Shown: positions 12,477 through 62,103 of the stretch, piece after piece
Layout of the letters: each line of letters begins with the position of its first letter
Position numbering within the stretch: position 1 is the first letter of the stretch
NCBI GenBank assembly: GCA_044229075.1
Contig: JBGATS010000003.1
Location: 12,372-76,371 of the forward strand
DNA length: 64,000 nt
Direction of reading: 5' to 3'
From: Minisyncoccia bacterium
Lineage (GTDB): Bacteria > Patescibacteriota > Minisyncoccia > Phycocordibacterales > UBA1006
Position numbers and translations under genes: made by a program
The notes under the pieces: generated by a model
What the model was told of the DNA's origin: nothing
Database searches by the model: none
Seen by the model: only the letters and a program-made list of their open reading frames with translations

Positions 12477-12582
12477 CAGTACTCCTCAGTCCTTCGGACA
12501 ACTCCTCTAAAAGAGGAGCCACTTCCAAACGTCGGGTGCTTTGCTCCTCTTGTAGAGGAGCTCCGCGAAGCGGTGAGGAGTA
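12477..12582. repeat. structured palindromic intergenic repeat element, copy A (about 106 nt, 3-prime terminus truncated by about 3 nt)
   Basis: cagtactcctcaGTCCttcgGGACaaCTCCTCTaaaAGAGGAGccacttccaaacgtcgggtgctttGCTCCTCTtgtAGAGGAGctCCGCgaaGCGGtgaggagta. Terminal inverted repeats GTACTCCTCA/TGAGGAGTAC and four internal hairpins. Sits between the DUF559 stop (3 nt away) and the dnaJ ATG (6 nt away). Confidence 0.85.
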
Positions 12583-12984: not shown

Positions 12985-13093
12985 CAGTACTCCTCAGTCC
13001 TTCGGACAGCTCCTCTAAGAGAGGAGCCACTTCCAAACGTCGAGTGCTTTGCTCCTCTCTTAGAGGAGCTCCGCGAAGCGGTGAGGAGTACTG
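12985..13093. repeat. structured palindromic intergenic repeat element, copy B (109 nt, complete)
   Basis: CAGTACTCCTCA...TGAGGAGTACTG, same internal hairpins as copy A (UUCG tetraloop hairpin, two GCTCCTCT-NNN-AGAGGAGC hairpins, CCGC-GAA-GCGG hairpin). A partial extra terminus tacagtactcct lies at 12953-12964. Confidence 0.85.
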
Positions 13094-16003: not shown

Positions 16004-16112
16004 CTGTACTCCTCAGTCCTTCGGACAGCTCCTCTATAAGAGGAGCCACTTCCAAACGTGTAGTGCCTTGCTCCTCTTGTAGAGGAGCTCCGCGAAGCGG
16101 TGAGGAGTACTG
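16004..16112. repeat. structured palindromic intergenic repeat element, copy C (109 nt)
   Basis: ctGTACTCCTCAgtccttcggac...gctcctcttgtagaggagctccgcgaagcggTGAGGAGTACTG. Hairpin loops differ from copies A and B (ata vs aag/aaa) while the stems are preserved. Confidence 0.85.
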
Positions 16113-35824: not shown

Positions 35825-38467
35825 TTAATTTTTTACTACATTTCCATTATCAAGCTTCGTCTCACCTTCACTACATCCAGCATGGTAGTTTGCAAGATTT
35901 CGCGTAGATTGATACCAGTGTCCTGTTGGTTTTGAAAGTTTCCAAGGAATTAATACCTTATCAGCATATTTATTTTGATATTGCTCTACTGCCTTCTTTG
36001 TTTGTGGACCAAAAACTCCTGAAATTGGTAATTTTATTCCTAAGTGTTCATTGAGAAATTCTTGCATCTTTTTAACCTCAAAAATTCCATTTTTTCCATC
36101 ACGATCACCATACCGCATATATTGAGTAAAATATGGACATGATTTTTGGTCTTTTATTAATTCTGCAGCATTAGAATTTAACGTGGATGAATTTACTATA
36201 TTCCAACCCAGTACTGCTATCATTCCTCCACCAGAACCTGATGTTATGGTTGGAAGAGAGTAATTAATAGTGAGTGCATTGGAAGCTGTTGCATTTGTAT
36301 TACTTGCTCCATCAGTCACACTCCCTGCAAGAATTTGTACCGTTATTGCTCCTGGGGCTATAGGTGTAATGGTAACCGCATAGTTACCAGACCCATCAGG
36401 TCCGACGAGGTTTGATGCCGTGCCGTTGGTTACCATTAAATCAGAAAGCGTAAGTCCGGTAATTGATTCACTTGGGGTAATGGTTACGGTGAATGGAGCT
36501 GATACTGAGGCTGATGAAGTTGCAAGAGTAATAGTCGGCGCAGTTGTATCAGATGGTACTGATGCAATAACCAACACACTTGTCCCGTCTCCTGTTTGAT
36601 TTTCTGTCGTACCAATATTACCAGCGGCGTCATGCGGAATGATTTCAATATTGGTAAGCGCTTGGCCATATATCATTCCTATGGTAAGCGATGCGGCTAG
36701 TACCGTACATGTATACGGATCAGTAACGACTGACGGAGCGGTACATATTGCTGCAACACCGCCAACAGTAATTGTCGATGTGGCAAGGTCAAGAATCTCA
36801 TCAGAAATAAATGAGAGGGTTACACTATCAGAACCTGAAGTTGCTTCAAAGCTTGGACTTGTCCCTGAAGGTCCTGAGATACTCACACCACTGATTACTG
36901 GGGCCGTTGTATCGCCGGCATCTGCAATAATAGTAGTAAGATTTGCAGGAAGTGAGAGACTTGAGTAATTTGTATCTGGTGAAGTAATTGCAATAAATTC
37001 TACGACACCTGTATGAGTACCTTCTGGTACCCCATCAACAACTGGAGTCACTGTAATTTCTTGTCCGAGATTCCAAGTATTACATGGCTCAAACGGTGAA
37101 ATACCAGGTGTTATTGACATGCTTGCAGGTACAAAACAAACTCCAGATACTGGATTACCATCTTTAGTTAACTCCAACTGTCCATCAGTATTCGTAAATG
37201 CTATTTCTACAATATCTGTTGGTTCATTTGATAAACCCATTTGAAATGTTGTAGCGACTGGTCCGGTTTCATTTATATTTGCAAGGTTTGGTGTTGGTGA
37301 AACCCATACCCCAGCAGTTTGTGGAAGTGTAGCCGTGAGGAAGATACTCAGCGTATTTCCATGATTTACCGCTGCAGCATCAGGAAGACTATCTCCATCA
37401 AAATCATTTACAGCAATTCCAAGAGGACTAAAATTCACCGTATAAGGAACTGGTGCATCAAATGTTAGATCACCATTACCCAGGGCAACCTGCACTCCTC
37501 CTGTTGATGTAGCCGAAGCATCTGACCATAAAACATCTAAATTTCCATCACCATCAAAATCCACTATCTTTGAATAATATGCTGAGCCTGGATATGTTTG
37601 ATGAATAATTGATCCATCCAAAGAAACAATACTCATTCCATCATTAGGAGAAGTGACTACTAATTCATAAATACCATCATTGTTAAAATCAGCAGTATTT
37701 ACACCGTACGGATTAGTTGATGCAAAGCTATAATCAAAATCAAAATTTCCAGATCCATCGTTTCGATATGCTTGAATTTGACTTTGGTTTTCATCTGCAA
37801 TAATGATATCTTTCCATCCATCACCTGTGTAATCAAATGCAGTCATTGCTTTACCTCCATGACCAGAACCGGTACCTCCTGCTGTCGCATAAGAAAATAC
37901 TCCTGACCCATTGTTCGTATACACCTCGAACGCGCTTACATTTTCTGTGCCGATAATAACATCGTTATCTCCGTCATTATCCATATCAGCAAGAGTTAAA
38001 TCTCCTTGACGAGTTCCATCTGTGTTACTTAATGCAACTACATCAAAAGCACCTGTAAACCGTACTCCTGCTCCTGTATTTTTATATATTTGGAGTTGTC
38101 TCAAATTACTATTCCCCACAACAATATCAACATCTCCATCGCTATCGATATCACCAACAGCAAGCCCCCATTCATAGGAAGCACCGTCGCCAAGAATTAA
38201 CGGTGCCTGAAAGGTTCCGTTTCCGTTTCCATATAAAATTCCGATTCCTGCCATACTTTTTCCATCGGTTACTACAAGATCGTTTTTTCCATCTGCATTA
38301 AAATCTGCAGATTCTACGAGGTGCATATCGCCGCCTAGAATAGTTGGAGTTTGTGGATTAAATGGATATGCGGACACAGTATGGTATCCAAACAGAGCAA
38401 TAACAATTACTCCTGCACATAGCCCTGCCAGCTGATAATATAATTTTTTTATATTTGGATTACCCAT
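35825..38467 (-). CDS. secreted FG-GAP/VCBS-repeat (beta-propeller) surface protein with Ig-like domains and C-terminal PG-binding-like domain
   Basis: Repeated FNADGKNDLVVTDG, VGDIDSDGDVDIVVGNSN, DMDNDGDNDVIIGTEN, DFDGDGNLDVLWSD (FG-GAP Ca-binding repeats). C-terminus CPYFTQYMRYG...VKKMQEFLNEHLG...PQTKKAVEQYQ...PWKLSKPTGHWY...AGC. Confidence 0.6.
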   Translation of the reverse strand: MGNPNIKKLYYQLAGLCAGVIVIALFGYHTVSAYPFNPQTPTILGGDMHLVESADFNADGKNDLVVTDGKSMAGIGILYGNGNGTFQAPLILGDGASYEWGLAVGDIDSDGDVDIVVGNSNLRQLQIYKNTGAGVRFTGAFDVVALSNTDGTRQGDLTLADMDNDGDNDVIIGTENVSAFEVYTNNGSGVFSYATAGGTGSGHGGKAMTAFDYTGDGWKDIIIADENQSQIQAYRNDGSGNFDFDYSFASTNPYGVNTADFNNDGIYELVVTSPNDGMSIVSLDGSIIHQTYPGSAYYSKIVDFDGDGNLDVLWSDASATSTGGVQVALGNGDLTFDAPVPYTVNFSPLGIAVNDFDGDSLPDAAAVNHGNTLSIFLTATLPQTAGVWVSPTPNLANINETGPVATTFQMGLSNEPTDIVEIAFTNTDGQLELTKDGNPVSGVCFVPASMSITPGISPFEPCNTWNLGQEITVTPVVDGVPEGTHTGVVEFIAITSPDTNYSSLSLPANLTTIIADAGDTTAPVISGVSISGPSGTSPSFEATSGSDSVTLSFISDEILDLATSTITVGGVAAICTAPSVVTDPYTCTVLAASLTIGMIYGQALTNIEIIPHDAAGNIGTTENQTGDGTSVLVIASVPSDTTAPTITLATSSASVSAPFTVTITPSESITGLTLSDLMVTNGTASNLVGPDGSGNYAVTITPIAPGAITVQILAGSVTDGASNTNATASNALTINYSLPTITSGSGGGMIAVLGWNIVNSSTLNSNAAELIKDQKSCPYFTQYMRYGDRDGKNGIFEVKKMQEFLNEHLGIKLPISGVFGPQTKKAVEQYQNKYADKVLIPWKLSKPTGHWYQSTRNLANYHAGCSEGETKLDNGNVVKN

Positions 38468-38762: not shown

Positions 38763-41700
38763 TTATTCAGTAGGAGTATCCCCTGATCCACCAGAACCAG
38801 TGTTAGTCGGGGGAGGTGTTGTACCCCCTGATCCCGAATCTCCTGTTCCTGAAGTACTACTTGTCGGATCTGTAATATCTCCACCAGACGTGTCGCCAGT
38901 ACCAGTATCACCAGAAGGCGTAGAATCGCCATCTGTTCCAGTTCCTGTTGATGAAGTATCCCCACCACTAGGGGTAGATGATCCACCAGAAACAACTGTT
39001 CCTTGTCCATTCATCATTGATTCCAATTGGTCACCATTTACACAGTATTCAGATCCATCTGCTTTTTTCAAACAAATTTGTTCTGAACGAACCTTTTTCG
39101 CAAAGAGTTCATTAATTCCGTTTGTTGCACTCGCGAGCCAGTCACGGAGCTTGGTAACAAATGTTGAATCAGTTCCATCTGTGTTAAATTCAAAGTTCTC
39201 AATCTGATTAATATTTAGATCAAGCTCTTTGATTGCCGCGATAACAAATGGGATTGATGATGATTCATTAATAGCTAAATACCCGTCAGGATTAGTTACA
39301 ACACCTGCTGGAATTAATTGTTGAAATTCCTGTGCAAGGAAACCATCGTAATGAGTTCCTGTTCCATCCCCGATGAAATTATAATTCACCGGACGAAGTC
39401 CTGTAATTTTTGCAAGTGCATCTGCAGTATTGATATCCACTACATTTTCCTTGAGTCGTGCATCAGACGTACATGCCCAGTTTGCACCAGCACCAGGATT
39501 GAATGTACACACTCCGGCTGCAGTATTGTCATCAACTGTGATCAGATTCCCGTTTGGAGTCGTAGCAGAACCGATCGATACTAATGCTGATGTTGCTGCA
39601 CTATCAACTGTCAGTAATCCGCTTGTTGTTGTTGTGCCAATACCTAATCGTCCTGCAGCATCCAGTCGCATACGCTCTACACCTGCGGTACTGAATCCAA
39701 CAATATCAGCGCCCGGACTAAATATTCCTGTATTAGTATCTGCAGTCCAACTATACGCAGGTACAGCAGCAGTCCCAAGTCCTGTTAATTGAACACCACC
39801 TGTAGACGTTTCTTGAAGAAGTTTCACCCAAGATGTCCAAACTCCTCCATTTCGTCCACGCATAAAGATACCATTATTAACATTATTTGAATATGGAATA
39901 CCTAATTGGGTAGTATTACCAGTTCCATCTTTACTACTATATTCAAAGTTAAACGGATGATAGTAACTTCCTGATCCAGGACCATTTGTTGCGGTACCTA
40001 GAAGTAAGGTGTATCCCTGACCTGATCGTGAATTAGTAACATCATTCCAATCAACAACACCTGCTGTAGTTACCGCCCCAAAACCTCCTTGAATAATTCC
40101 ATTCACTTCAAGTTTTTGTGTTGGTGCTGCAAATCCTAATCCAAGATTTCCTGCTGCAGTAAGTGTCATTCGAGTCGCGCCTGATGTTTCAAAATTGAGA
40201 TTTTGAACATCATTCGTACCAAGTGTTGCTGCTGCTCCAAAACTATTTCCATTTTGGATAAACATACCAGTCGTTCCATTGATATCAAATTTACGAAGAT
40301 CACCATTTGCGTCTGAATAAACTAATCCATTCGTACCACCGAGAGCAAGTCCTGAAATTGATGTTCCTCCGAGTGAATTAAATCGAATGTTTGCAGTCCC
40401 TGCAGTACCTGCAACATGGAATAATTGTGATGGTGTTGTAGCACCAAGACCAATACCGACATTACCGCCATTTGGGTTAAACATCATTGGGTAATTAACC
40501 GCAAGTGTCCCCTGATTCGTTACCTGCATCCATGCACCATTAGCGCCATTGATACCCGTATCAATAACTACACCTGAAGCATCGCCAAATCGTGATACAT
40601 GTCCAGCACCTTGTACAGTTCCAGAAGTTGCGGCAAAACTTGAGCCGCTATCGTTTACAAATAATCGTGCAGTTGTAAGAGGTGTCGCACCAATACCAAA
40701 ATTACCAATAGTATCAAATGTTGCACGGGTCACACCAGCTGTTTCAAATCCAAGATTAAACAAGTCATTCGTACCGAGGGTTGCTGTTGTTCCAAAACTA
40801 TTTCCGTTTTGGATAAAGTCACCATTCGTAATACTTGCCATTGATCGTTTATACAATTCGCCGTTTGTATCTACAAACAATATTCCGTCATTTGCTCCCA
40901 TGGTATAGGCCGTAGTTATTGCCGGACCAGAAAGATGGGTAATACGTACATTTGGTGTTCCGGCTGCCGCTGTCTGAGCAACACCATTTACATGAAATTG
41001 ACGTGTAGGAGCAGTTGTACCGATACCTACATTCCCACCGTTAGGGTTAAGCATAAGTGGATATGTCAAAGACAAATCTCCAGTATTAGTTGCTTGAAGC
41101 CAGGTACCTGATCCTCCATTACCACCAATATCAAGTGTTGCGCTTGTCGCTGCGCGAAGTCGTGTAATAAATCCTGCAGATTGAGCAGTTCCTGAAGTAC
41201 TTGGGAATGCGTTTCCAGTTCCTACTACTTCTAGTTTTGCCTGTGGGATTGTGGTATTAATACCAAAATTACCACCTGCATCCAGTCGCATACGTTCTGT
41301 ACCATTAGTTGACCATGCTTGAATATCTGCGCCTGGACTCCACCAACCGTTGTTAGTATCCCCAACAAAACTATGTGATGGAGTACCAGCAATACCCAGT
41401 GCGGTAAACATACGTCCTGTAGTATCTATTTGGAATAAGTCACCGTTTCCTACGGTAAAGAGTGAAGCAGGTGTTGTATCACCAATACCTACAAACCCAC
41501 CAGCAGTAACACGCATACGTTCGGTGTTACTTGTTCGTGTGACAAAATCAACTGCATCAGTGGTACCAATAAAATTGGTTGTTGCAAGTGTTCCTGCATT
41601 TCCTGTTATCATCCAACCGTTATTAGCATTTGCCAGAGCAACCCAACCAGTGTTCGTTCCAAGACCTGAAGCCTTGTAATACATAATTCCATTAGTAATA

Positions 41701-44700
41701 TCATTTGCAATATCACCCACTGATCCAGTTACAAAAGCATTGGGGCTACTATTGGTAATAAATGTTTGATAATCACCCCCTTGGTTTGCAAGTGTTTCAA
41801 TTGGGATATTCATTGTAAGTCCACTATTTACATGTAATTTTGTAGCAGGGGTATTTGTTCCAATTCCTAAACGACTATTGGTATTATCCCAGAAGTATTG
41901 CGCATTGTTTTGTGAAAGTAGTCCTCCTGCACCTGCAAAGAATACTGATCCTGGGGTCATCGTCGCAAAAGTTGTATTTCCATTAAATGTCGCTGCACCT
42001 GCAAAGGTTTTTGCTCCAGCAAAGGTTTGTGTTCCTGTTGAGACGAGTCCTGGGAATGTTGCGTCCGCAGTCTGCATAAAGAGGTTTGTTCCAGAGATTG
42101 CAGCACCATTTGCAGATTTTGTAGTTCCATCAAGTGTTCCAATAGTACTCACTCCTGCTGTGATTGCAACTGATCCTGCAGCGGTAAGGCGCCCCTGCGC
42201 ATCTACCGTAAATGTTGGTATGTTAGTTGCAGATCCATATGAACCTGGAGTAACCGCAGTGTTTGCAAGACCTACGGTTGCCGTTGCATTTTCAGCGCCG
42301 GTACCTGTTACGGTAAGGCCTGTCCCAGAAAGAATGGTCGCAACATAGTTTCCGGTGGTGTCAGTACCCAAGGCTACTGCATCAGGCTGTACTACGGTTG
42401 CACCAAGCGTACCTCCGATATCACCCGCAAGGGTAAGTCCAGAGATAGGAGTACTTGAAGCAATTCCATTGACTGTTGAGGTAAGATTACCCGCAGCAAA
42501 AGAAAGAGTATTACTGTTAACAATAGGAGCCGTTACTGAAATACCGTTTACGACGGAGGTCAACGTGTTTGCCGATGACCCAAGAGTATGAGTCATTGCT
42601 ATTGATCCAGCTGCAGTGAGACGTCCTTTACTATCTACGGTAAATGTTGGAATACTCGTAGCTGATCCATATACTCCAGCAGTTACTGGTGTGTTTGAAA
42701 GAGTAAGTGATGTACCTGTTCCCAATACTGCACCGGTTCCACCTGTTATAGAAATATCAGAGGTGGTTGAGGTAAGGTTTCCACCAGCAAGTGATGAAAG
42801 AGCTATAGATCCTGCACCTGTTAATCGTCCTTGTGCATCTACTGTAAAGGTAGGAATAGATGATGTTGAACCATAAGATCCAGCAACTACTCCTGTGTTG
42901 GTAAGAGAGATGGTTCGATCTGCTGAAAGATTTCCTCCCCCTGTGAGACCAGTTCCTGTGAGTATTTGTCGAGTACTATCTACTTTTGCATTAAAGGTTG
43001 CCCAATCAGTAGGTGTAAGAAGACCTCGATTTACAGCCGTAGCAGAAGGAAGATTTAAAGTATGTACCCCTGCTGCAGTTGTAATATTTGCATTGGTTCC
43101 TAGAGATCCAATAACAATACTTTGGTTTGGATTAGTATCACCATTAATAGAGGTAATAACTCCTAATGATGAAAGCGGTTGCCATGAATCAGTTCCTCCA
43201 GCACCACCAGAAACCAAGACCATACCTGATGATCCACGTGATCCTGATGGGGCAAGTCCTCCGGTACCATTCATACCATAATACATATCACCATTACTAT
43301 CGATGATATATTTGTTCGCATCGTTAGTTCCTAGGATTACAGCATTACCCCAATCACCAACAAGGTTTGAACCAATCGTAATTGCCCCGTTTTTAACAAG
43401 ATTATTTCCAAAACCAAATGCTGCTGTACCTGACACACCTGATCCTGAATTATTAAGACCAATCATTACAGAGGTATCAGAATTATCAATTCCATTACCA
43501 TATCCAAATTGGTATATTAATTTACCATTATCCTTACTTCCATTATCCATACCAATTTGTGTTTGGTATGAAGATCCTCCAGAAATACTGTTTCCTTGCC
43601 CAAATTGTTGCGTATTTTGTCCATCAGTACTATTTAATTCACCTACTTGATAAGTACTTGTTCCTGATGAACTGTTGTTGTCACCAAAAATCATATTCAA
43701 CGAACCTGACATTGATGTACCTGTACCAAACGCAAGATTCTGTCCTGCAGTATCTACAATCGTTGGTTGGTTAAGTGTTCCTCCAAGGATAATTTCTGTT
43801 CCTGTATTGGTAAGTCCATTATTCACTGCAACTAATCCAGTAACATCAGACCATGTAGGTGAATTACCTGCTCCATTAGAAACAAGTATCTGTCCACTGT
43901 TTCCTGCTGTTCCACTTGCAATAAGATCATTTAAAAGAATGACTGAATCATTGAATGATTTATCACCACCAAATGTTTGAGCACTTGTCGTAACAAGACC
44001 TCGCGCAAGAGTTGAAGCGTTAGGAATATTAAGAGTTAGAGTTCCTCCAAGAGATGCAGGAGATCCAGAAACATTCACATCAGTTCCCGTTGTTCCTGTT
44101 GCAAGACCAATCGTCCCTAATCCAGAAAGAGGCGTGGTTGCTGCAACTCCGTTAATAGTAGAAACAAGGTTCCCACCTGCAATAGCAAGCGTATTCGCAT
44201 TAATAATAGGAGCTGATGTAGAAACACCATCAACAACCGATGTCATAGTATTTACTAATGAACCCAATGTATTCGTAAGAGTACGATTCCCAGCAAGGGT
44301 AAGTCGTCCTTGGGCATCAACGGTAAAGCTCGCAATAGACCCAGGAGCTCCATACGAACCAGCAGTAACGCCCGTGTTATTCAATCCTACAGTAATATCA
44401 CCAAGTCCTACCAAGCGGTTAGTAAGTGCTCCTCCAAGTGTCATTCCTGTTCCTTGGATAATTGATCCAGCTGATCCAGTCGTTGCACAGGTAGGGCATG
44501 AAATTTCACCGGTTGTGTTGTTGTACGCAATAGGTGCAAGTCCTGAGAGTGCTGCACGCGCTCGTGCATTGGTGAAATAGAGATTTCCGTTTTCAGGAAC
44601 AACTGAAGTGTCAAGTGTCTGCCAAGTTTTATCACCACGCCAGTATTGCGCCGTAGTTCCTGCAACAATTGCAGGTTCTTTGCTATTGAAATTAATCCAA

Positions 44701-47700
44701 TCCGCAGGTGAAAGAGCTCCACGATTTATGTTTGAAGCGGTTGGAATATTAATCGTATGAGTTGATCCAGATGAAGCAATATTTACATCAGTTCCAGATG
44801 TTCCTGCTGCGAGAGTTTGTGCAGTTGCAGTAAGTCCGTTCAGTGATGTAATCGCAAGTGATGAAATAGGAGTCTGCCCTGCAAGCGTAAGACGTCCCTG
44901 AGCATCAACGGTGAAGGTTGGAATATTTCCTGTAGTTCCATATGACCCAGCTGTCACACCTGTAGTCGTAAGGTCAAAATTATTTGCGGTACGAGCAATA
45001 CCACCACTGGCAGTCATAATGTCAGTTACCGTATTTCCTGTACGTGAAAGTCCACCGGTAAAGGTAAGTACATTTTCCTTGTTATTAAATGTCGTCCAAT
45101 CTGTACTTGTTAAGAGTCCGTTTTGAGCATTAGTTGCATTTTGAATATCGAGCGTTGTCCCTGCACCAAGTACTGCCCCTGATCCTCCACTGATAGTGAT
45201 CGCACTATTTGGAGTTGTAAAGTTTGATCCAGACATCGCTGAAAGTGCTGTTGACCCTGCTGCAGTGAGACGACCTTTTGCATCCACAGTAAAATTAGGA
45301 ATCGCTGTAGTCGTTCCATATGATCCAGGGGTTACTGTAGTGTTCGAGAGTGTAAGCGTTGCACCAGAACCAAGCACGGCACCTGTTCCGCCAGTTACTG
45401 CAATATCAGCTGTTGTTGATGCAAGATTTGATCCAGACATCGCTGAAAGTGCTGTTGATGATGCAAGTGTAACACGACCATCTTGGTCGACAGTAAATTG
45501 TGGGATTGATGACGCACCACCATACACACCTGCAGTAACCCCAGAACTTGTAAGTTCGGCAGGCCCTACTACGTCATTATTGAGTTGGATATTTCCAAGA
45601 TTTCCAGAAACATCACCTGCTACAGCAATAGTGTTTGTTGAAACAGTTCCAGCAGCGGTAAGACGCCCTTGTGCATCTACAGTAATAAGTGGGATACTTG
45701 TTGCAGATCCGTATGAACCAGCAGTAACGCCCGTGTTATTCAATCCTACAGTAATATCACCAAGTCCTACCAAGCGGTTAGTAAGTGCTCCTCCAAGTGT
45801 CATACCTGTTCCCTGGATAATTGATCCAGCTGATCCAGTCGTTGCACAGGTAGGACATGAAATTTCACCTGTTGTTGAGTTATATGAAATTGGAGTAATT
45901 GCAGAAAGAGCTGCGCGTGCGCGAGCGTTGGTAAAGTAGAGATTTACTGTTCCTTCTGTAAGGTCATCCGTTGTTTTTGTAGCTAATGCTGCGTCGAAAC
46001 GAACTGGTGTCCAATACAAATTAGTTCCTTCGGGCACTACGGTTGTATTGAGAGTTTGCCATGTTTTATCGCCACGCCAGTATTGTGCAGTAGTTCCTGG
46101 TACAATTGCGTTTTCCTTGTTATTAAAGGTATTCCAATCAGTTGCGAGAAGAAGTCCGTTCTGGGTTGGTCCTGCAGATTGAATATCAATCGTTGCACCT
46201 GATCCAAGTACTGCACCTGCTCCCCCGGTGATAGTAACTGCAGTGTTAGGTGAAGTAAGGTTTGATCCAGTAAGTGAAGAAAGTGGTGTTGAACCAGCAT
46301 TGGTTAATCGTCCCTGAGCATCCACAGTGAAGAGTGGGATTGAAGAGGTTGAGCCATATGTTCCAGCAGTGACACCTGTAGAAGCCAAGTCAATAGTGGT
46401 TGCAGCATTTTCTATCCCAGAACCAGTCACGATCAACGCACCACTTGCAGGGGCAAGGGTTGCAATATAGTTTCCAGTCGTGTCAGTAGCAAGTGCTACC
46501 GCATCAGTTCCAATGACGGTTGCACCAAGGGTTCCAGTTACATCACCTGCAAGTGCCATTGATGAAGTGCTTGACCATGCAGGAATACCTGTTGGACTTA
46601 CACTTAATACTTGTCCAGTAGTTCCAATAGGAAGTGCAGAGAGCGTGTTTGCACCTGAAGCAAAGAGGATATCACCGAGGGTATATGAAGAAAGTCCCGT
46701 TCCCCCCTTTGTTTCATCGAGTACTCCTGAAATATTATTGAGTGAAAGTGCTGACTCATTAACGTCAACAGAAAATGGTTGTAATACCGCACCAATTGGT
46801 GTACCGCTGAGGATGACCTTACTTGATCCAGCAGTTACATCATATGTTCCATTTGCTGCCATAATTGCAGCAGCATCAAAACGAGTCCAGTCGGTAGAGG
46901 TAAGTAAACCATTTTGAGTAGCAGTTGCGTTTTGTATATTGATAGTTACTCCACTACCAAGTACTGCACCTGATCCGCCGGTGATAGAAATAGCACTATT
47001 CGGAGTAGTGATATTTGATCCTGACATTGCAGTAAGTGCCACTGATCCAGCAAGACCTAGTCGTCCTTTCGCATCAACTGTAAATGTTGGGATGGATGTA
47101 TTTGATCCATATGAACCTGCGGTTACGCCAGTACTTGAAAGAGTGACCGCTGTTCCTGTTGGGTTGAGTACCGCTCCTGCCCCACCTATTACCAAAATAT
47201 CTGAAGTAGTAGAAGTAAACGATCCACCCGATCCAGATGTCACACATGATGGACAAGAAATTTCACCTGTCGCATTACTGTAAACAATCGGACTGGTTGA
47301 GTAGAGTGCATTACGTGCACGAGTATTTGTGAAATACAAATTAGATCCTTCAGGTACTACTGAAGTATCAAGGTTTTGCCAAGTTTTATCACCGCGCAAA
47401 TATTGCGCTGTTGTTCCTCCTGAAAGCGCATTATCCAACGCATCAAATCGCTGCCAATCGAGTGCAGTAAGGAGTCCGCGATTAGCTGATGAAGCTGATG
47501 GGATATTAAACGTGTGCACACCTGCAACTGTAGACACGTTAAAATCGGTACCTGTAGTACCGGTTGTAAATGTTTGGATTGATGCCGTATCACCATTGAG
47601 TGAGGTGATACCTCCACCAGCAGCCCCAGGAATGGTTACGGTAACCGTCCCACCCACGTTGGTTGCGGTAACCCCTGCTCCGACAAATTGCAGTTTCAAT

Positions 47701-47927
47701 GTGTTGGTGGTGAGCGATGTTGTTTCATCGATCGTCTCCAGGATTGCTGGAAAACAATTGGTGTCGAGTGGGCCGCAGGGTTCAACCGATTCTGCGCCTG
47801 GATCGATGGTTTGACCAACGGTAAATGGATTGGTTCTTGTAACCGCAAATGTTGCAACAGGTACACTCACAATACCAATGATTGCTACAAGTGATACGTA
47901 TCGCATCACGGAAATTATTTTTTTCAT
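38763..47927 (-). CDS. giant (3054 aa) repetitive cell-surface fibre protein, tail-fibre-like, with C-terminal Peptidase_S74 intramolecular chaperone domain and Gly/Thr/Ser/Asp-rich tail
   Basis: N-terminal signal/[30 protein letters not shown]. About a dozen copies of [24 protein letters not shown]. Four copies of TTAQY(L/W)RGDKTWQ(N/T)[19 protein letters not shown]. Near the C-terminus, [63 protein letters not shown] matches the S74 chaperone-of-endosialidase domain. Confidence 0.8.
44350..44577. repeat. near-identical internal DNA repeat within the giant gene (copy 1 of an about 1.36-kb-period duplication)
   Basis: An about 200-nt stretch ccatacgaaccagcagtaacgcccgtgttattcaatcctacagtaatatcaccaagtcctaccaagcggttagtaagtgctcctccaag... 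is repeated almost exactly at 45709-45936. It encodes ...[52 protein letters not shown]. Confidence 0.8.
45709..45936. repeat. near-identical internal DNA repeat within the giant gene (copy 2)
   Basis: Same sequence as 44350-44577 with a few substitutions. The plus-strand shadow ORFs 44134-44580 and 45196-45939 share a 51-aa identical stretch because of it. Confidence 0.8.
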
Positions 47928-49972: not shown

Positions 49973-50470
49973 ATGAAAAAGAAACAAAAATTATCAGGAA
50001 AGAAAAAAGATTTAATTATTAACAAGTTACATATACTAACTCAACTTCTTAATGAGAGAGAAATTAATCTCATGCACATAATTATGCAAAATGAAGAAGA
50101 GGTATTAAAAACTATTAAATTATGTAAATCTAAAAAAATTTCAGTTAATGATTTAGTATACAGATGGGAACTTGTAGATGATAAACCTATTTTTGACGAA
50201 ACAGAAGATTTTTCATCTTTTATGAAATTTACATTAACTGGGAAAATTAGTCTTCCAGGAGAGCACGAATTACAAAAAATATACTTTGATTTTTGTCATG
50301 ATGAGGATGGAAAAATATGCGTATTTTTTCAGGACTACTTTAGTACATGGTTTTCACAAAATGCATTAGGATGTTTTTATTTAGAAAATATTTATTTAAA
50401 AAATGGTATGAAAGAATTAAATAAACTTATTTTATTTCAAGAAAAACTTGTAAATTTCTTAAAATCCTAA
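49973..50470 (+). CDS. hypothetical protein (165 aa), AT-rich orphan
   Basis: Isolated plus-strand ORF in an AT-rich patch, convergent with the helicase-nuclease gene. No motifs recognised. Confidence 0.35.
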   Translation: MKKKQKLSGKKKDLIINKLHILTQLLNEREINLMHIIMQNEEEVLKTIKLCKSKKISVNDLVYRWELVDDKPIFDETEDFSSFMKFTLTGKISLPGEHELQKIYFDFCHDEDGKICVFFQDYFSTWFSQNALGCFYLENIYLKNGMKELNKLILFQEKLVNFLKS

Positions 50471-53500: not shown

Positions 53501-53565
53501 GCGAGTTGTTGTGCAGTATTGAGCATACGATATGCAGATTGAAATTGATTCCATTCTAAATTCAT
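50527..53565 (-). CDS. UvrD/PcrA-family SF1 helicase fused to a C-terminal RecB/Cas4-like PD-(D/E)xK nuclease domain with Cys cluster (AddA-like helicase-nuclease)
   Basis: AGPGTGKTQVLTLRIANIL (Walker A, motif I). YVLVDEHQDSSGVQ (DExQ, motif II). The C-terminal domain has an N-terminal Cys (YECPWKWY), then ...DFKTG...YSYL... (PD-(D/E)xK-like), then a terminal C...CEYCA. The four Cys are typical of AddB/Cas4 Fe-S nucleases. Confidence 0.8.
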   Translation of the reverse strand: MNLEWNQFQSAYRMLNTAQQLAVDTIDGPVMVVAGPGTGKTQVLTLRIANILVKTDIPPSGILCLTFTRSGVSAMRQRLEGYIGTRARDVRITTFHSFAIGLIEKYYNLLDFISSPKLLDDAEAIVLVDELLQNGTWDYLRPRTDPSKYFHDLRGLISILKRERMSPQQFLGEVEKDIKSLQDDPISISTRGESKGQLKKEVEKKIESLNRTREVVAFYEQYESLKHDRGFMDYDDVLEFAVQLAEQFEDVRADLRENHQYVLVDEHQDSSGVQNQFLKAVWSDVERPDLFVVGDDRQLIYGFSGANIGYFTDFKTAFGNAKMITLTENYRSTAPILNLADELLKSSVTNEVLNSNKDGNDLVKLSEFHYNRDEIIGAGLYFKSVIANGGSADECALLVPKNRHAKAAAAALRSLGLPVISEQNVSLLDTAETQSLLRILGIIANPFNNVLLAEALLDKTSLVPPMQAHKFLKSIKKMDNLSIDDLVHYGADDGLFAGEHAIAVFGKKLQSWIELLSHTDVMHTVSFVGNESLIDQSNSHDELLKSIEIVRSFIHASTAWTEKNPTGNLSNFLDYFKRLNNYGNTVEIARLGNRSGIRVMTLHKSKGLEYDHVWIGHMNEEILMSEKASAFTLPESVKEKIAERDILTAKRELYVAITRAKQFCTISYAAKRDDGAVLTLAHIIEDLSDEYFVKLSADENEASIIQNDPRNYATTSPRPSPTLGEGGASDVLIEDIKQFVTERFTETKISVSMLNNFYECPWKWYFRNFLKLPELKSVSLALGSAVHSTIEYILKSSTLPNESDIKVYIDKELHDEGITDKNEHTRLAHDALAAVNSWITGYYANLAKDRVAERSLTYRDKQFPNLTMYGKIDLTERFPDPAISGTGGTIIVTDFKTGSSKTTGVIEKLDDENRLSGMMRQLAMYSYLIRGSEGNDVTESRLLFLEEDLKQKNALYRTHVNGEQIELLIRDIADYQNLLMSGEWVDRPCNSKPFGKSTECEYCARMNKILGK

Positions 53566-53610
53566 ACTATAAGTATATCATAGGATATGTATTTCCTAAA
53601 TGAGTCACCC

Positions 53611-53633
53611 CCGATACAGAGCGCCAAGCTATC
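53611..53633 (+). other. recurrent intergenic hairpin motif, copy 2 (GATAC-AGAGCGCCAAG-CTATC)
   Basis: Stem with an outer G:C replacing A:U (covariation) and one C:C mismatch. Lies in the 190-nt leader upstream of the helicase-nuclease gene. Confidence 0.3.
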
Positions 53634-53755
53634 AACTTGAACCAAGTGCTAGTGTATCAGTGTAAAAAGCGCTCAGGTATTTATAAGGTATTAAGAAATA
53701 TTTTAGCCAGAACACTAAACCACTAGAGACGACTATTCTGGAATTTTATTAAAAA

Positions 53756-54313
53756 TTATATCACCATGAGTTTCTTAAATATTTCAAAAGTTGCCCGAAT
53801 ATCAGCAAGTGCGGTATGCGCTTTCTCGTTCTTGATCCCAAGACGTTCACATAATTCCCGCAGAGTAAAACTCGTCATCGTAGCGTCTTTCCGGAATCGC
53901 ATATACGCCAAGGAGATCGTATCGAGCTTTGCGTAATAAAAAGGATCTTTAATCCCTTTTTGACCAAACGCATACGATAAAAATGAATAGTCAAAACTGA
54001 TGTTTTGCCCTACCAAAATACATCCATCACATTTTTGGGAAAGTGTTTTCAATGCTTCCTCGAGTGTATGGGCGAACATCCATGCAGACTCATCGTATCT
54101 ATTAACCCGTAATGCCTCTGACTCTGCGGTTTCGATATGTTCTGGTTGTACCTTGAATTCGAACTCGTCAGTAGCAACCCATTCTCCGGCATCATTCTGT
54201 TTTGCGATGAGACATCCAATTTCAATAATTTCATGTTTATACGGATTGAGTCCTGTGGTTTCAATATCAACAAATGCGAGTTTTTTACCTTTCATAGTAA
54301 TTAAGTATACCAA
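53756..54313 (-). CDS. DEDDh 3-prime-5-prime exonuclease (DnaQ/PolIII epsilon-like)
   Basis: LAFVDIETTGLNP (Exo I), ...FDYSFL... (Exo II), AHTALADIRATFEIF (Exo III with His, DEDDh). Confidence 0.8.
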   Translation of the reverse strand: MVYLITMKGKKLAFVDIETTGLNPYKHEIIEIGCLIAKQNDAGEWVATDEFEFKVQPEHIETAESEALRVNRYDESAWMFAHTLEEALKTLSQKCDGCILVGQNISFDYSFLSYAFGQKGIKDPFYYAKLDTISLAYMRFRKDATMTSFTLRELCERLGIKNEKAHTALADIRATFEIFKKLMVI

Positions 54314-54344
54314 AAATTAAAAAATAGTGAAGTTTCTTATTAAA

Positions 54345-54695
54345 TTAATTTTTATTCTGTTTTCCGGTATTTTCATAGCTATTTACAATAAATTCTGATG
54401 CATTACTTACATTTCCTGAAATATTAAAAAGTCCATCCGTTGGATTTGGATAGACATTAAAATCTTCAAATATTGAGCTATTGTTTTCTATTGCTGTTGG
54501 TGTATTAATTACATTAACCTGACTTGTTCTATTGCCTACTTTGTCATAAAAATACGTTTCACTATTTCCATTTGGAAATGTGGCTGTTTTGATACGATTT
54601 TTGGAGTCGTAGGTGTATTTAATTGATTGTGCTTTAATTATTATAGTAAAAAACAAACTAAATAAAAGTACAATTAACAATTTTAAATTATTCAT
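54345..54695 (-). CDS. signal-peptide YD/RHS-repeat fragment with truncated T9SS C-terminal sorting-domain-like tail (orphan fragment)
   Basis: MNNLKLLIVLLFSLFFTIIIKAQS (signal). YTYDSKNRIKTATFPNGNSETYFYDKVGNRT (YD repeats). VYPNPTDGLFNISG resembles the start of a Por/T9SS CTD, cut short by the stop. Very AT-rich. Confidence 0.4.
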   Translation of the reverse strand: MNNLKLLIVLLFSLFFTIIIKAQSIKYTYDSKNRIKTATFPNGNSETYFYDKVGNRTSQVNVINTPTAIENNSSIFEDFNVYPNPTDGLFNISGNVSNASEFIVNSYENTGKQNKN

Positions 54696-54698
54696 AAT

Positions 54699-55136
54699 TT
54701 AATTAAGATTTAAATAATTTTTAGCTTCTAAGGTTGTTGTAAATAATAATTCGGGATAAATATTCAAAAATTCATTGATGCTATTTTCTAGAACAAACTC
54801 AATTAATAATTCATAATTAGTCTTTATATAATTTATTAATAGCTTTTCATTAAGTTCTAAATCTAACGGTAAAAAATCATACTCGTTATTATTTATTTTA
54901 AATGTGAACCTAGTTCTTATATCTCCATCTGAGTCCTTAGGGTATTCTAATGTAGGATGCAAAGCTTTAAAAACATAGCCCAAATTAAAATAATATGCAC
55001 TAGAATATGCTGATCTTTGTATTCCTACTACACATATTATTTCACTATTTTGTTTATAATAAAAATTACCTTTTTTTATAAAGCCTAATAATTTAAAGTA
55101 ATTTAATATTTGTTTTTTTAATTCTTTTATGTCCAT
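54699..55136 (-). CDS. putative immunity protein for the adjacent RHS toxin (145 aa)
   Basis: Immediately downstream (2-nt gap) of the toxin module, same strand, AT-rich. The assignment is from context only. Confidence 0.35.
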   Translation of the reverse strand: MDIKELKKQILNYFKLLGFIKKGNFYYKQNSEIICVVGIQRSAYSSAYYFNLGYVFKALHPTLEYPKDSDGDIRTRFTFKINNNEYDFLPLDLELNEKLLINYIKTNYELLIEFVLENSINEFLNIYPELLFTTTLEAKNYLNLN

Positions 55137-55137
55137 A

Positions 55138-55899
55138 TTAGTATAAATCTAAAACTGTTTTCCAACCTTTTCCATATAATTTCTCAACTTCTATTAAATA
55201 CATTTGTAGTTGTTTTTTACCTTCTTTGATTTGTCTTGGATTATTTGGTTTTAACTCATAAATTATCTTATTTTCAAAATCTATAAAATCAATTCTTAAT
55301 CCGCTAGGCAATCTAAATTCTTTACATCTTATACACTTAATCCCTTTTTTTAAAACATCATTAGCTTTATATAATCTATGCATTTCTTGACCAATTTTAA
55401 AACTTGATTTAGTGTAGTTAACCCCTTTTATTGAGGCTCTACCCACAGTTCCACCACCTGCCACACCTGGCAATGCTGTAGTTACAACATCTAATGCTAA
55501 AAATACAAAATTACCCAAAGTTGGATTGTTTCTATATTCATTTAAATCATAAGCAAATGATGCAACATCAGCAGCTGTTTCCACATATTCCCCATTCGGA
55601 TCAACATTCATTATCGGATTATTATCCGCATACGGAAATAAATTGGTACTCCATACAGGATCTTCTGAATAGAATCTCCCATAGTAGGGATTATAGCATC
55701 TATTCCGCATATAGTAAAGGTTTTGGAGGTCGTACTGAACGCCATATTTTCCTACATATTTAAAGGGTTGTTCAAATTGTTGTGTTTGGTTGGTTACATC
55801 ACCAAATGTGCCGTAGCGGTAGGTATGCGTAACGGTACGGTTTCTATCCAATATCATAGTGGTAGAACCTCTGGGGTTATAATTAAAAAAAACACCCAT
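55138..55899 (-). CDS. orphan RHS-repeat-associated core C-terminal fragment with polymorphic toxin domain (probable PD-(D/E)xK-type nuclease toxin)
   Basis: YYMRNRCYNPYYGRFYSEDPVWSTNLFPYADNNPIMNVDPNGEY matches the RHS core terminus (RYYDP..GRF.S.DP...NLY.Y..NNP....DP.G). The following about 150 aa include RIDFIDFENKIIYELKP (D...E.K nuclease-like). Confidence 0.6.
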   Translation of the reverse strand: MGVFFNYNPRGSTTMILDRNRTVTHTYRYGTFGDVTNQTQQFEQPFKYVGKYGVQYDLQNLYYMRNRCYNPYYGRFYSEDPVWSTNLFPYADNNPIMNVDPNGEYVETAADVASFAYDLNEYRNNPTLGNFVFLALDVVTTALPGVAGGGTVGRASIKGVNYTKSSFKIGQEMHRLYKANDVLKKGIKCIRCKEFRLPSGLRIDFIDFENKIIYELKPNNPRQIKEGKKQLQMYLIEVEKLYGKGWKTVLDLY

Positions 55900-55910
55900 A
55901 AAAATCGGTG

Positions 55911-56996
55911 TTATTTCAAATATTTCTCCTTGTTTTTTAGATGTTCTTGATACATTTCTGCGTAATGAATAGTTCCCTGATCATCATGAAGATAATACCA
56001 ATACGGTGAATCAACAGGGTTGAGTGCGGCACTGATCATCATTTTTCCTGGATTACCGATAGGACCTGCGGGGAGCCCTGTTCGTGTGTAGGTGTTATAG
56101 GCAGAATCTTTTTGTAAATCGTTCATAGTGAGTTCGCTACTAGTTTTTCCTAATGTATATTTAAACGTTGCATCCACCTGCAGCGGCAATCCTTTTTCCA
56201 TTCGTTTCCATAAAATTCCGGCAACTACCCTTGCCTCTTCTGCATTATTTGCCTCCCGTTCCAATATTGATGCCATGGTTATAATCTCTGCTGCAGTGCG
56301 CACTTTCCCACCATAGGAAACAATGGTTGTTGCATCTTTTGGGTTTTCTGAGGTTTGAAACATATCTTGAAAACTTCTCATTACCATATTCCATTGATCC
56401 TGTAATTTGGTAATAATCTGGTCAACTGATTGAGTTCGGAAAAAATAATACGTATCAGGGAAAAGGTATCCTTCCTGGGAAACAGTTTCCTGGAGAAAAA
56501 CATCTCGACGAAATTCAGGTATTTTTTGGGAGAGGATGTCTGCCATCTCGTACCGAGTAATTCCCTCGGGGAATGTTATCTTGATACGACTATTTCCGTA
56601 TGACCCACGAACAAATCGTCTGGCAATAGAAAAAACATGTTCTGGTTTTTCCAGTAGATAATCCCCGGTAACAATTGGTTTTCCTTTCCACCGGGAAGAC
56701 ATAATTACACGGAACCATAATGATGATCGGATGAGTTGGTTATTCTGTGCAACTGACGCAAGTTCCCGAATCGTCATTCCAGAATATACGGTAATCATGG
56801 TGCCTGGTTTGAAATGTTTTGGTGGTAATGAAATAATAAAAATCCATACAATAATACCTACCAGTAATCCTATACAAAACAACATTACATACCAAAAAAC
56901 TCCTCGCTTTTTCTGTGCGTGAGTTTCTGTGGGAGAGACCGGAATATCCGCGGCTACTTCTGCCAAGAGAGATTGATAGTCAGGATGTATATCCAT
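55911..56996 (-). CDS. mltG: endolytic murein transglycosylase MltG (YceG family)
   Basis: N-terminal TM, then KITFPEGITRYEMADILSQ..., then the YceG-like domain to the C-terminus. Confidence 0.8.
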   Translation of the reverse strand: MDIHPDYQSLLAEVAADIPVSPTETHAQKKRGVFWYVMLFCIGLLVGIIVWIFIISLPPKHFKPGTMITVYSGMTIRELASVAQNNQLIRSSLWFRVIMSSRWKGKPIVTGDYLLEKPEHVFSIARRFVRGSYGNSRIKITFPEGITRYEMADILSQKIPEFRRDVFLQETVSQEGYLFPDTYYFFRTQSVDQIITKLQDQWNMVMRSFQDMFQTSENPKDATTIVSYGGKVRTAAEIITMASILEREANNAEEARVVAGILWKRMEKGLPLQVDATFKYTLGKTSSELTMNDLQKDSAYNTYTRTGLPAGPIGNPGKMMISAALNPVDSPYWYYLHDDQGTIHYAEMYQEHLKNKEKYLK

Positions 56997-61632: not shown

Positions 61633-62103
61633 TTATGGGTGCCAAACATATTCTGATTTGAATTCTTCAGAGAATTTATATATTCTTGGAAAATTATTTT
61701 CAGAATATGAAATTTCTTTTAAAATAAACCCTGAATTATATTCATTGTAAACTGTTTCGATAGCTTCAATATAGATCTTTTCTGTTTCATTTTTCTTTAA
61801 GAAAATTTCACCATCAATCTTATTAAGATTAGAATTACCAATCCAAATTGAATTGAAACTGCAGTTTATCGAATCGATTTTCAAACTTTTAAAATCAACA
61901 ATAATATCTGTACCTATTGCTTTTATTTCAAAAGTCATCGTAGCTTTTGAGATAAGGTTTGGAACTCGATCAAACACTTGTTCAGTATTGATAAGTCTTG
62001 CTTCTAAGACCCCAGTTTCTTTTACAATTGTAATTTCTGATTTTTTACAAGAACTTAATAATACTATTAATCCTAATAATACTAGCGCGATGTTTTTTTT
62101 CAT
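61633..62103 (-). CDS. putative lipoprotein (156 aa)
   Basis: MKKNIALVLLGLIVLLSSC, a lipobox-like LSSC. Very AT-rich. Confidence 0.45.
   Translation of the reverse strand: MKKNIALVLLGLIVLLSSCKKSEITIVKETGVLEARLINTEQVFDRVPNLISKATMTFEIKAIGTDIIVDFKSLKIDSINCSFNSIWIGNSNLNKIDGEIFLKKNETEKIYIEAIETVYNEYNSGFILKEISYSENNFPRIYKFSEEFKSEYVWHP

Follow-up and report, generated by a model that had tools for sequence, protein, structure and literature searches.

How does a bacterium with a reduced genome come to carry the tip of an Rhs toxin, and what could keep it there? The question is raised by a short AT-rich islet in a 64,000-nucleotide (nt) stretch of contig JBGATS010000003.1 from a Minisyncoccia bacterium, hereafter called the window. 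In the islet, three open reading frames (ORFs) lie head to tail on the minus strand between mltG and the RNase T gene rnt, from position 55899 down to 54345. ORF1 carries the end of an Rhs core and a nuclease toxin domain, ORF2 a presumed immunity protein, and ORF3 a truncated protein with a signal peptide, YD repeats and part of a type IX secretion system (T9SS) sorting signal. The GAPDH of the window shares a 90%-identity cluster with a protein that bears the name 'Candidatus Paceibacterota bacterium', and we take the recipient, on this basis, to be a Paceibacteria-type bacterium of the candidate phyla radiation (CPR); an earlier sequence-only reading had called such a module unusual if its host were a reduced epibiont. 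An orphan Rhs toxin/immunity cassette is a known kind of element, found here in an unusual host. We consider it likely that the islet was acquired horizontally as a piece of a Bacteroidota-type rhs polymorphic-toxin locus and now lies in the mltG–rnt intergenic region of a CPR genome, and we infer for it a role in immunity or addiction.

The cassette and its insertion between mltG and the RNase T gene

Every element that the sequence-only reading had described was recovered on the minus strand where that reading had placed it. ORF1 starts within the Rhs core. Its amino acids (aa) 29–103 match the core profile TIGR03696 (Rhs_assc_core; E = 4.7e-14, 52.7 bits against a cutoff of 32.5), and the core ends at NVDPNGEY, after which a linker and a Tox-REase-9 domain follow. 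Solved Rhs/TccC structures (TccC3, YenC2 and Rhs) align only with aa ~10–116, that is, the C-terminal end of the shell. A profile scan of ORF1 gave no match to RHS_repeat or TEN_YD-shell, and profile scans found no N-terminal trafficking or secretion domain; a core remnant is present as had been read, yet it comprises the last ~100 aa of the core rather than ~70 aa. The rest of the protein had been described as a toxin domain of ~150 aa. It does contain a nuclease, but the domain itself is 92 aa long and is preceded by a linker of ~58 aa. PF15650 is matched over its whole length (profile positions 88/88, E = 3.7e-37, 126.9 bits against a gathering score of 27.3). The signature of the Tox-REase-9 family is GxxxH, E, D, ELKP and YxxE (Zhang et al. 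2012, Table 2, PMC3482391), and all its motifs can be read intact in ORF1 as GQEMH, KEF, IDF, YELKP and YLIE. The linker also occurs in some full-length Rhs proteins with other toxins (on the related contigs L011 and L015), and six proteins, P0105–P0110, match the tip together with the linker at ~52% identity.

ORF2 starts 1 nt past the ORF1 stop, as expected of the small immunity gene that had been proposed to follow the toxin, and matches PF14137 (DUF4304; E = 3e-20, 72.8 bits against a gathering score of 23.2). It is the presumed cognate immunity protein of the ORF1 toxin; a DUF4304 gene accompanies the REase-9 toxin at two loci. Published Tox-REase-9 domains are typically fused to RHS repeats, occur in Bacteroidetes and have Imm54 as their listed partner (PMC3482391). 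The islet shares with these toxins (Zhang et al. 2012, PMC3482391) the full-length domain match and all signature motifs. It differs in that its partner matches Pfam DUF4304, in which the 'GF ... Q' signature is present by eye, a likeness that falls short of establishing the equivalence of the two families. No relative of ORF2 was found among solved structures, and a literature search found nothing mentioning DUF4304.

ORF3 has an N-terminus that resembles a signal peptide, a match to RHS_repeat (23.8 bits against a gathering score of 22) and a match to Por_Secre_tail that covers only profile positions 1–32/75 and, at 17.6 bits, lies below the gathering score of 27. The sorting signal had been read as truncated, and so it is: the complete T9SS type A sorting domain (TIGR04183/PF18962) is absent from ORF3 owing to truncation, whereas full-length homologues pass both profiles (41–53 bits for Pfam; 40–49 bits for TIGR04183 against a cutoff of 23). 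ORF3 is the truncated copy (first ~112 codons) of a gene that encodes a signal peptide, two YD repeats and a T9SS type A C-terminal domain (CTD), and belongs to a very small family whose full-length members have ~155 aa. In alignments with the full-length proteins P0088–P0091, homology stops after ...NTGK (about 54360), and the last four codons and the stop of ORF3 come from junction sequence.

Close relatives lack the islet. L007 and L008, contigs from other samples whose flanks are ~96% identical, have an empty site, in which 51 nt separate mltG from the RNase T gene downstream. L007 1–2673 aligns with window 58555–55885, and L007 2664–3245 with window 54324–53747. The islet is therefore an insertion of ~1,556 nt at about 54325–55880 (Table 1). 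Its guanine–cytosine (GC) content is 28.1%, against 39.4% in the remaining window, and it is both the longest and the lowest-GC islet within the 64 kb. The empty sites and this difference of 11 points bear out what had been said of its high AT content and its horizontal acquisition. Of the two objections that the sequence-only reading had raised against itself, neither holds: no rhs gene continues upstream, where mltG ends at 55911, 11 nt away, and the three genes are not conserved natives of the lineage. Neither the islet nor its immediate surroundings contain recombinase or mobile-element genes; the islet has a single immunity gene and no array, and an Rfam scan of it gave no match.

The junctions explain how ORF1 acquired its annotated start. 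The insertion sits at the terminator of mltG, a native terminator-like hairpin with a T-run that a simple terminator scan does not call; in the empty-site strains a stronger hairpin lies at the same position. The ATG at 55899 and about the first six codons of ORF1 (MGVFF.., GGT GTT TTT TTT) are the native T-run of this terminator. This ATG is in frame only because the window strain has eight T; strain L002 has seven, and there it is out of frame. The annotated start at 55899 is fortuitous, and foreign sequence begins at about 55880. Alternative starts are M15 (55857, called as the start in L002) and M64 (55710, from which the copies at two other loci start). A 10-nt direct repeat, AATTAAAAAA, flanks the segment, with just two copies within 54000–56200 in an exact search; the empty sites have a single AAATAAAAAA.

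A sharp change in composition combined with cross-phylum similarity would also be seen if the assembler or the binning had joined an AT-rich segment of another organism to a CPR contig. However, a single contig spans both junctions, and CPR genes flank them on either side. The identical contig L001 was built independently from another read set, and L002, from another sample, has the same left junction with a different cassette. Because an identical contig was assembled independently, a chimera is very unlikely, and we give this explanation almost no weight.

Table 1. Features of the islet and its flanks in window coordinates, and complete rhs loci in the coordinates of their own contigs
Feature	Coordinates	Strand	Remarks
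Inserted foreign segment, from inside the Rhs core to inside the downstream YD/T9SS-CTD gene	54325..55880	-	~1,556 nt, 28% GC; from empty-site alignments, junction reading and GC
ORF1, orphan Rhs C-terminal tip and toxin	55899..55138	-	253 aa as listed
Rhs core tip, aa ~7–103	55591..55880	-	ends ...YYMRNRCYNPYYGRFYSEDP...NVDPNG, the DPxG boundary motif of Rhs proteins
Linker/pre-toxin segment, aa 104–161	55417..55590	-	EYVETAADVASFAYDLNEYRNNP...GGGTVGRASIKG; no Pfam family
Tox-REase-9 nuclease domain, aa 162–253	55141..55416	-	PF15650
ORF2, DUF4304, presumed cognate immunity protein	55136..54699	-	145 aa
ORF3, truncated signal peptide/YD/T9SS-CTD gene	54695..54345	-	116 aa
5' conserved bracket	55598..55712	-	92–100%, common to cassettes with other toxins; blastn against L002–L006
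3' conserved bracket, mature part of ORF3	54349..54624	-	~90–92%, common to cassettes with other toxins
Left copy of 10-nt direct repeat AATTAAAAAA (+ strand)	55881..55890	.	within the mltG terminator T-run
Right copy of 10-nt direct repeat AATTAAAAAA	54315..54324	.	exact search
mltG terminator-like hairpin (AACACC-loop-GGTGTT) and T8 run, native	55885..55912	-	read from sequence
Flanking mltG (YceG)	55911..56996	-	PF02618; ~96–97% identical in L002, L007, L008 and L009
Flanking RNase T/DEDDh exonuclease	53756..54313	-	PF00929; likely true start ATG 54295
Complete locus, L010	5457–10468		1,483-aa Rhs; no called gene between; gene 3, 155 aa
Complete locus, L011	3–4736		Rhs >1,127 aa (contig end); 291-aa leucine-rich-repeat immunity gene; gene 3, 156 aa
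Complete locus, L017	981–6107		1,477-aa Rhs; Imm8; gene 3 partial (contig end)
Complete locus, L015/L016	L015 10001–16419		1,332-aa Rhs; 88-aa gene and Macro-domain gene; 458-aa YD/CTD protein

Complete loci and recurrence of the same segment

An exhaustive phmmer search with the tip returned 41,034 matches, and the tip belongs to the ordinary Rhs family. The search lists one protein for each 50%-identity cluster, and among these the nearest non-orphan relatives are Rhs proteins of 1,300–1,600 aa that match at their C-terminal ends. A word-index search with the tip and linker returned 10 matches and missed the Rhs protein of L010 although it is in the collection, which makes its negative unusable. 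The ORF1 tip is 70% identical to aa 1234–1347 of the L010 protein and 62% identical to aa 868–1065 of the L011 protein, and ORF1 aligns with Rhs proteins of this type from '...YDSRGSTT' to the DPxG boundary. Their loci have a common order, in which a full-length Rhs gene with a signal peptide is followed by an immunity gene and by a gene of ~155 aa, gene 3 (Table 1); the full-length Rhs proteins range over about 1,330–1,480 aa, and the contigs have 31–36% GC. ORF3, which the sequence-only reading had set apart as a separate fragment, is the conserved 3' neighbor of these source-type rhs loci and serves as the 3' homology arm of the cassette. Since the Rhs tip alone led to L015 and L017, the way in which the loci were searched for does not account for the association with gene 3.

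The chromosome beside the L010 element encodes a GldJ lipoprotein (E = 7.7e-121), the T9SS sortase PorU (E = 8.4e-102, partial protein), an outer-membrane β-barrel protein and a C25 peptidase, and its host is therefore a T9SS-bearing diderm of Bacteroidota type. The Bacteroidota-type origin that had been suspected from the sorting signal thus finds its counterpart in a complete locus, in a 155-aa protein that passes TIGR04183 and in a host genome with GldJ and PorU. The L010-type Rhs locus is cargo of an element inserted in comM, which also has ArdC-like, coupling-protein, nSTAND and helix-turn-helix genes; L019, a wastewater-metagenome contig with 100% identity over 11,467 nt, lacks the element, and its 511-aa comM is intact (L018 1–9358 versus L019 8309–9844). 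That the full-length loci might themselves be CPR loci was suggested by the L010 coupling protein, with ~23% matches to Gram-positive/archaeal DUF87 (tblastn against plasmids), and was ruled out by the adjacent GldJ, PorU, outer-membrane β-barrel protein and C25 peptidase. A tblastn search of plasmids with ORF1 found distant Rhs tips only, and alignment scans with gene 3 gave one weak YD-repeat match each in genome contigs and metagenome contigs.

The complete loci also bear on how their products may be exported. The Rhs protein begins with a Sec signal peptide and ends in the toxin, which leaves no place for a T9SS sorting domain of its own. A small protein that combines a signal peptide and YD repeats with a T9SS type A CTD is always encoded after the immunity gene, or directly after the Rhs gene in L010, and could be an adaptor that couples Rhs export to the T9SS.

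The segment comprising Rhs tip, toxin, immunity gene and the 5' part of gene 3 recurs at three sites on the chromosomes of CPR-like genomes, and at least four toxin/immunity pairs are represented among the copies. At the mltG site, L002 has flanks 97% identical to those of the window and the same left junction, and carries another pair (a 236-aa toxin protein and a 139-aa immunity gene). At the rpsP site, L003 has the same REase-9/DUF4304 pair as the window and L004–L006 have a third pair, with flanks 95% identical to one another and the same junctions. The dnaN site of L014, in a genome of 29% GC with a short monoderm-type YidC (234 aa), holds a fourth. Strains with ~95–97% identical flanks can therefore differ in the toxin/immunity pair held between the same two conserved brackets: the window and L002 are 92–100% identical down to ~55600, unrelated from there to ~54620, and 92% identical again in gene 3.

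The copies do not descend from one another in a simple way. Across the sites, the 5' truncation points lie 58, 0 and 84 codons before the conserved Met, and the 3' truncation points vary too; therefore neither the window copy nor the rpsP copy can have given rise to the other. Between the window and L003, identity is 100% in the DNA of the REase-9 domain, 99.3% in the immunity gene (three synonymous differences; identical protein), 96.0% in the linker, 93.5% in the core tip and 89.6% in gene 3, a mosaic that cassette replacement via homologous recombination through conserved flanks would produce. The bracket differences among CPR copies are mostly synonymous (dN/dS 0.05–0.17, dS 0.2–0.55). Since a truncated T9SS cargo gene is unconstrained in a CPR cell, this divergence would have arisen in the source genomes, which is suggestive of several separate imports at counts that are small (e.g. 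19 synonymous versus 11 non-synonymous).

This recurrence bears directly on whether the islet is neutral debris, i.e. environmental DNA that integrated at random, has no function and will decay. Its presence/absence polymorphism among near-identical strains would fit such an origin, as would the truncated ORF3, the accidental start of ORF1 and the lack of a recombinase in the islet. However, the same segment of the same locus type lies at three sites, in lineages of 29% and ~39% GC, and the toxin/immunity pairs have all ORFs intact (in a search that favors intact copies); random uptake would not resample one segment. We thus regard mere debris as decidedly unlikely. The islet had also been read as a remnant of interbacterial antagonism; the import stands, but it is better seen as one of several cassettes that were repeatedly imported and exchanged.

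The alternative toxins and immunity genes (L002 9065–10198; L004 10001–10989; L014 7598–8505) match no Pfam family, and an ELHHINGRE...H motif in the L004 toxin is suggestive of an HNH-type nuclease. Upstream of the cassette at the rpsP locus (L003 2100–2207; L004 9890–10000) lies a promoter-like sequence, and after it a ~70-nt stretch ending in a GGAGATG...CATCTCC hairpin and a T8 run. This stretch may represent a small RNA gene; as at the mltG site, the cassette immediately follows the T-run.

Entry, retention and possible roles in a CPR cell

The CPR recipient probably has no way to put an Rhs tip or a T9SS cargo gene to work. Natural competence is considered a trait of CPR bacteria. The first copy may have entered by illegitimate or microhomology-mediated integration at the AT-rich terminator, a route suggested by the lack of a recombinase and by AT-rich junctions that bear a 10-nt repeat. 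In later turnover, incoming DNA would recombine homologously through the two brackets, following the logic of orphan-cassette switching in Rhs and contact-dependent growth inhibition (CDI) loci. As the toxin is presumably not exportable from a CPR cell, any selective value would lie in the immunity protein. This protein may neutralize the REase-9 nuclease of neighboring or host Bacteroidota, which would amount to acquired immunity, or it may act as the antidote to a linked toxin expressed internally at a low level, in which case an addiction-like pair would retain the islet.

If the islet were a classical orphan reservoir, a deliverable full-length Rhs (e.g. Sec-dependent and WapA-like) would be encoded elsewhere in the genome, and the islet would be a silent spare tip to be recombined onto it. 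The kept core tip is exactly what orphan modules retain for recombination (PMC3967940), the cassettes clearly recombine through this tip segment, and the 64 kb are only part of the genome. Yet a tblastn search of the window with two full-length Rhs proteins matched only 55321–55902, and neither the window nor any of the five recovered CPR-context loci has an Rhs shell. The orphan status given by the sequence-only reading is upheld for the 64 kb, in which there is no shell, trafficking domain or full-length rhs. At >72% tip identity only short orphans were found (by two word-index searches that miss relatives and a phmmer listing of one representative per 50% cluster). The 3' bracket, moreover, is a T9SS cargo gene, of no use in a cell without an outer membrane, and tblastn with GldJ, PorU and the outer-membrane protein found nothing in the window. 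We judge a reservoir improbable.

A second alternative is that the islet is a selfish toxin–antitoxin (TA)-like pair, in which low internal translation from M15 or M64 penalizes loss of the islet and no interbacterial role is needed. In Salmonella, orphan Rhs-CT/RhsI pairs have internal promoters that drive their expression, and they act as type II TA modules (PMC7043789). Here every copy has its toxin ORF and catalytic motifs intact and an ATG in frame, and the toxin and immunity genes are 1 nt apart. The best promoter-like element, TTTACT-17-TGCTATAAT at 55718–55690 (-), lies inside the conserved tip codons LYYMRNRCYN. It is present in nearly every copy (L002–L006, L010, L011 and L014), full-length rhs included; L017 has TATTATAAT, without the TG, and the rpsP-locus junction creates TTGAAA-16-TGCTATAAT. 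The element recalls the internal P2 promoter of Salmonella rhs and may equally reflect coding constraint, from which it is inseparable. However, its -10 lies downstream of M64, and the transcript would start there as an immunity mRNA without translatable active toxin; promoter-like matches are not enriched, and close relatives live without the islet at no obvious cost. A TA-like pair overlaps the best explanation and does not exclude it. As the sole reason for retention we find it unlikely, though deserving of attention.

Comparison with published systems places the islet between several of them. Like the orphan rhs-CT/rhsI modules of Enterobacteria (Poole 2011, PMC3150448; Koskiniemi 2014, PMC3967940), it has a 5'-truncated rhs, a core end with DPxG, a variable toxin and an immunity gene, and exchange by homologous recombination through a conserved core segment. 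Unlike them, it is not downstream of a resident full-length rhs and lies in another phylum than the complete loci, it has a second conserved arm (the YD/T9SS-CTD gene), and it sits between housekeeping genes at a terminator. With the acquired interbacterial defense (AID) and orphan immunity islets of Bacteroidales and others (Ross 2019, bioRxiv 10.1101/471110; PMC10470768), it shares the horizontal acquisition of immunity by cells that do not deploy the toxin, as well as toxin gene remnants, which are often alongside, and variability among strains. It has, as they do, an acquired immunity gene without a deliverable cognate toxin, but it is a single cassette rather than an array, has no recombinase or mobile-element genes, keeps a complete toxin domain and resides in a CPR recipient, in which protection is hypothetical. 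With the type II TA behavior of Rhs-CT/RhsI (Starsta 2020, PMC7043789) it shares a delivery-less toxin tip and an adjacent immunity gene that could be expressed internally; it differs in that its best promoter-like element would give no translatable active toxin, which leaves expression hypothetical.

Several points weigh against the reading of the islet as an acquired Bacteroidota-type fragment with a role in immunity or addiction. No direct source of the REase-9/DUF4304 cassette was found, the closest full-length tips being 62–72% identical, and the taxonomy of the source-type contigs is read from their T9SS genes. The 10-nt repeat is of low complexity and is weak evidence for target duplication or microhomology. 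The related copies were found through intact protein calls, which miss decayed copies, so that the intactness of all copies is a biased observation; the search for a resident full-length rhs covered the 64-kb window, and one may lie elsewhere in the genome. As to function, which is the more conjectural part, the analysis fits acquired defense and addiction alike, the former presupposes that these Rhs toxins enter CPR cells, and promoter-like sites are no commoner in the region than in shuffled sequence.

A bolder version would be that Paceibacteria repeatedly import cassettes from one mobile Rhs family of T9SS-bearing Bacteroidota and keep them as acquired immunity against the Rhs weapon of the bacteria on or beside which they live. 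We hold this version only tentatively and doubt that it is right in full. If it is true, it would be the first AID-like defense described in CPR and a molecular pointer to the hosts or neighbors of this Paceibacteria lineage; if the immunity gene is protective, acquired interbacterial defense would extend to ultrasmall epibionts. Apart from function, the same slice of a Bacteroidota-type mobile locus, captured at three sites and swapped between near-identical strains, implies ongoing cross-phylum DNA flow in CPR genomes and ongoing homologous cassette replacement within them. The source-type loci point to a concrete group of T9SS-bearing bacteria, one of them represented by a wastewater-metagenome contig, as physical neighbors or possible hosts.

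Other features of the window

Synteny with the empty-site relative breaks after the RNase T gene (window 53565–53756 versus L007 3236–3354). Past this gene the window has a 1,012-aa UvrD/PD-(D/E)XK helicase, and the ~96% relative L007 has KhpA, a B12-binding-domain protein and an aminotransferase.

A 3,054-aa ORF at 38763–47927 (-) was considered as the missing Rhs shell and rejected, as Peptidase_S74 is its only domain and tblastn gave no similarity to Rhs. The Peptidase_S74 (endosialidase chaperone) domain lies near its C-terminus, and FG-GAP/Big_12/PG_binding proteins are encoded after it (35825–38467 and 33471–35765, both on the minus strand), which together look like a giant surface-protein cluster.

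Two more low-GC islets (about 28–29% GC) are present at 49973–50470 (+), with a 165-aa ORF, and at 61633–62103 (-), with a 156-aa ORF. Neither ORF matches a Pfam or NCBIfam family, and both may be imported genes. Around dnaJ/dnaK/grpE, a ~80-nt element with two GCTCCTCT..AGAGGAGC hairpins occurs in three copies (12506–12582, 13014–13092 and 16033–16111), for which Rfam gave only sub-threshold miRNA-hairpin noise. The same element recurs at 85–88% identity in the rpsP-locus contig L004 (11925–12003 and 17680–17759), which suggests a lineage-specific intergenic repeat.

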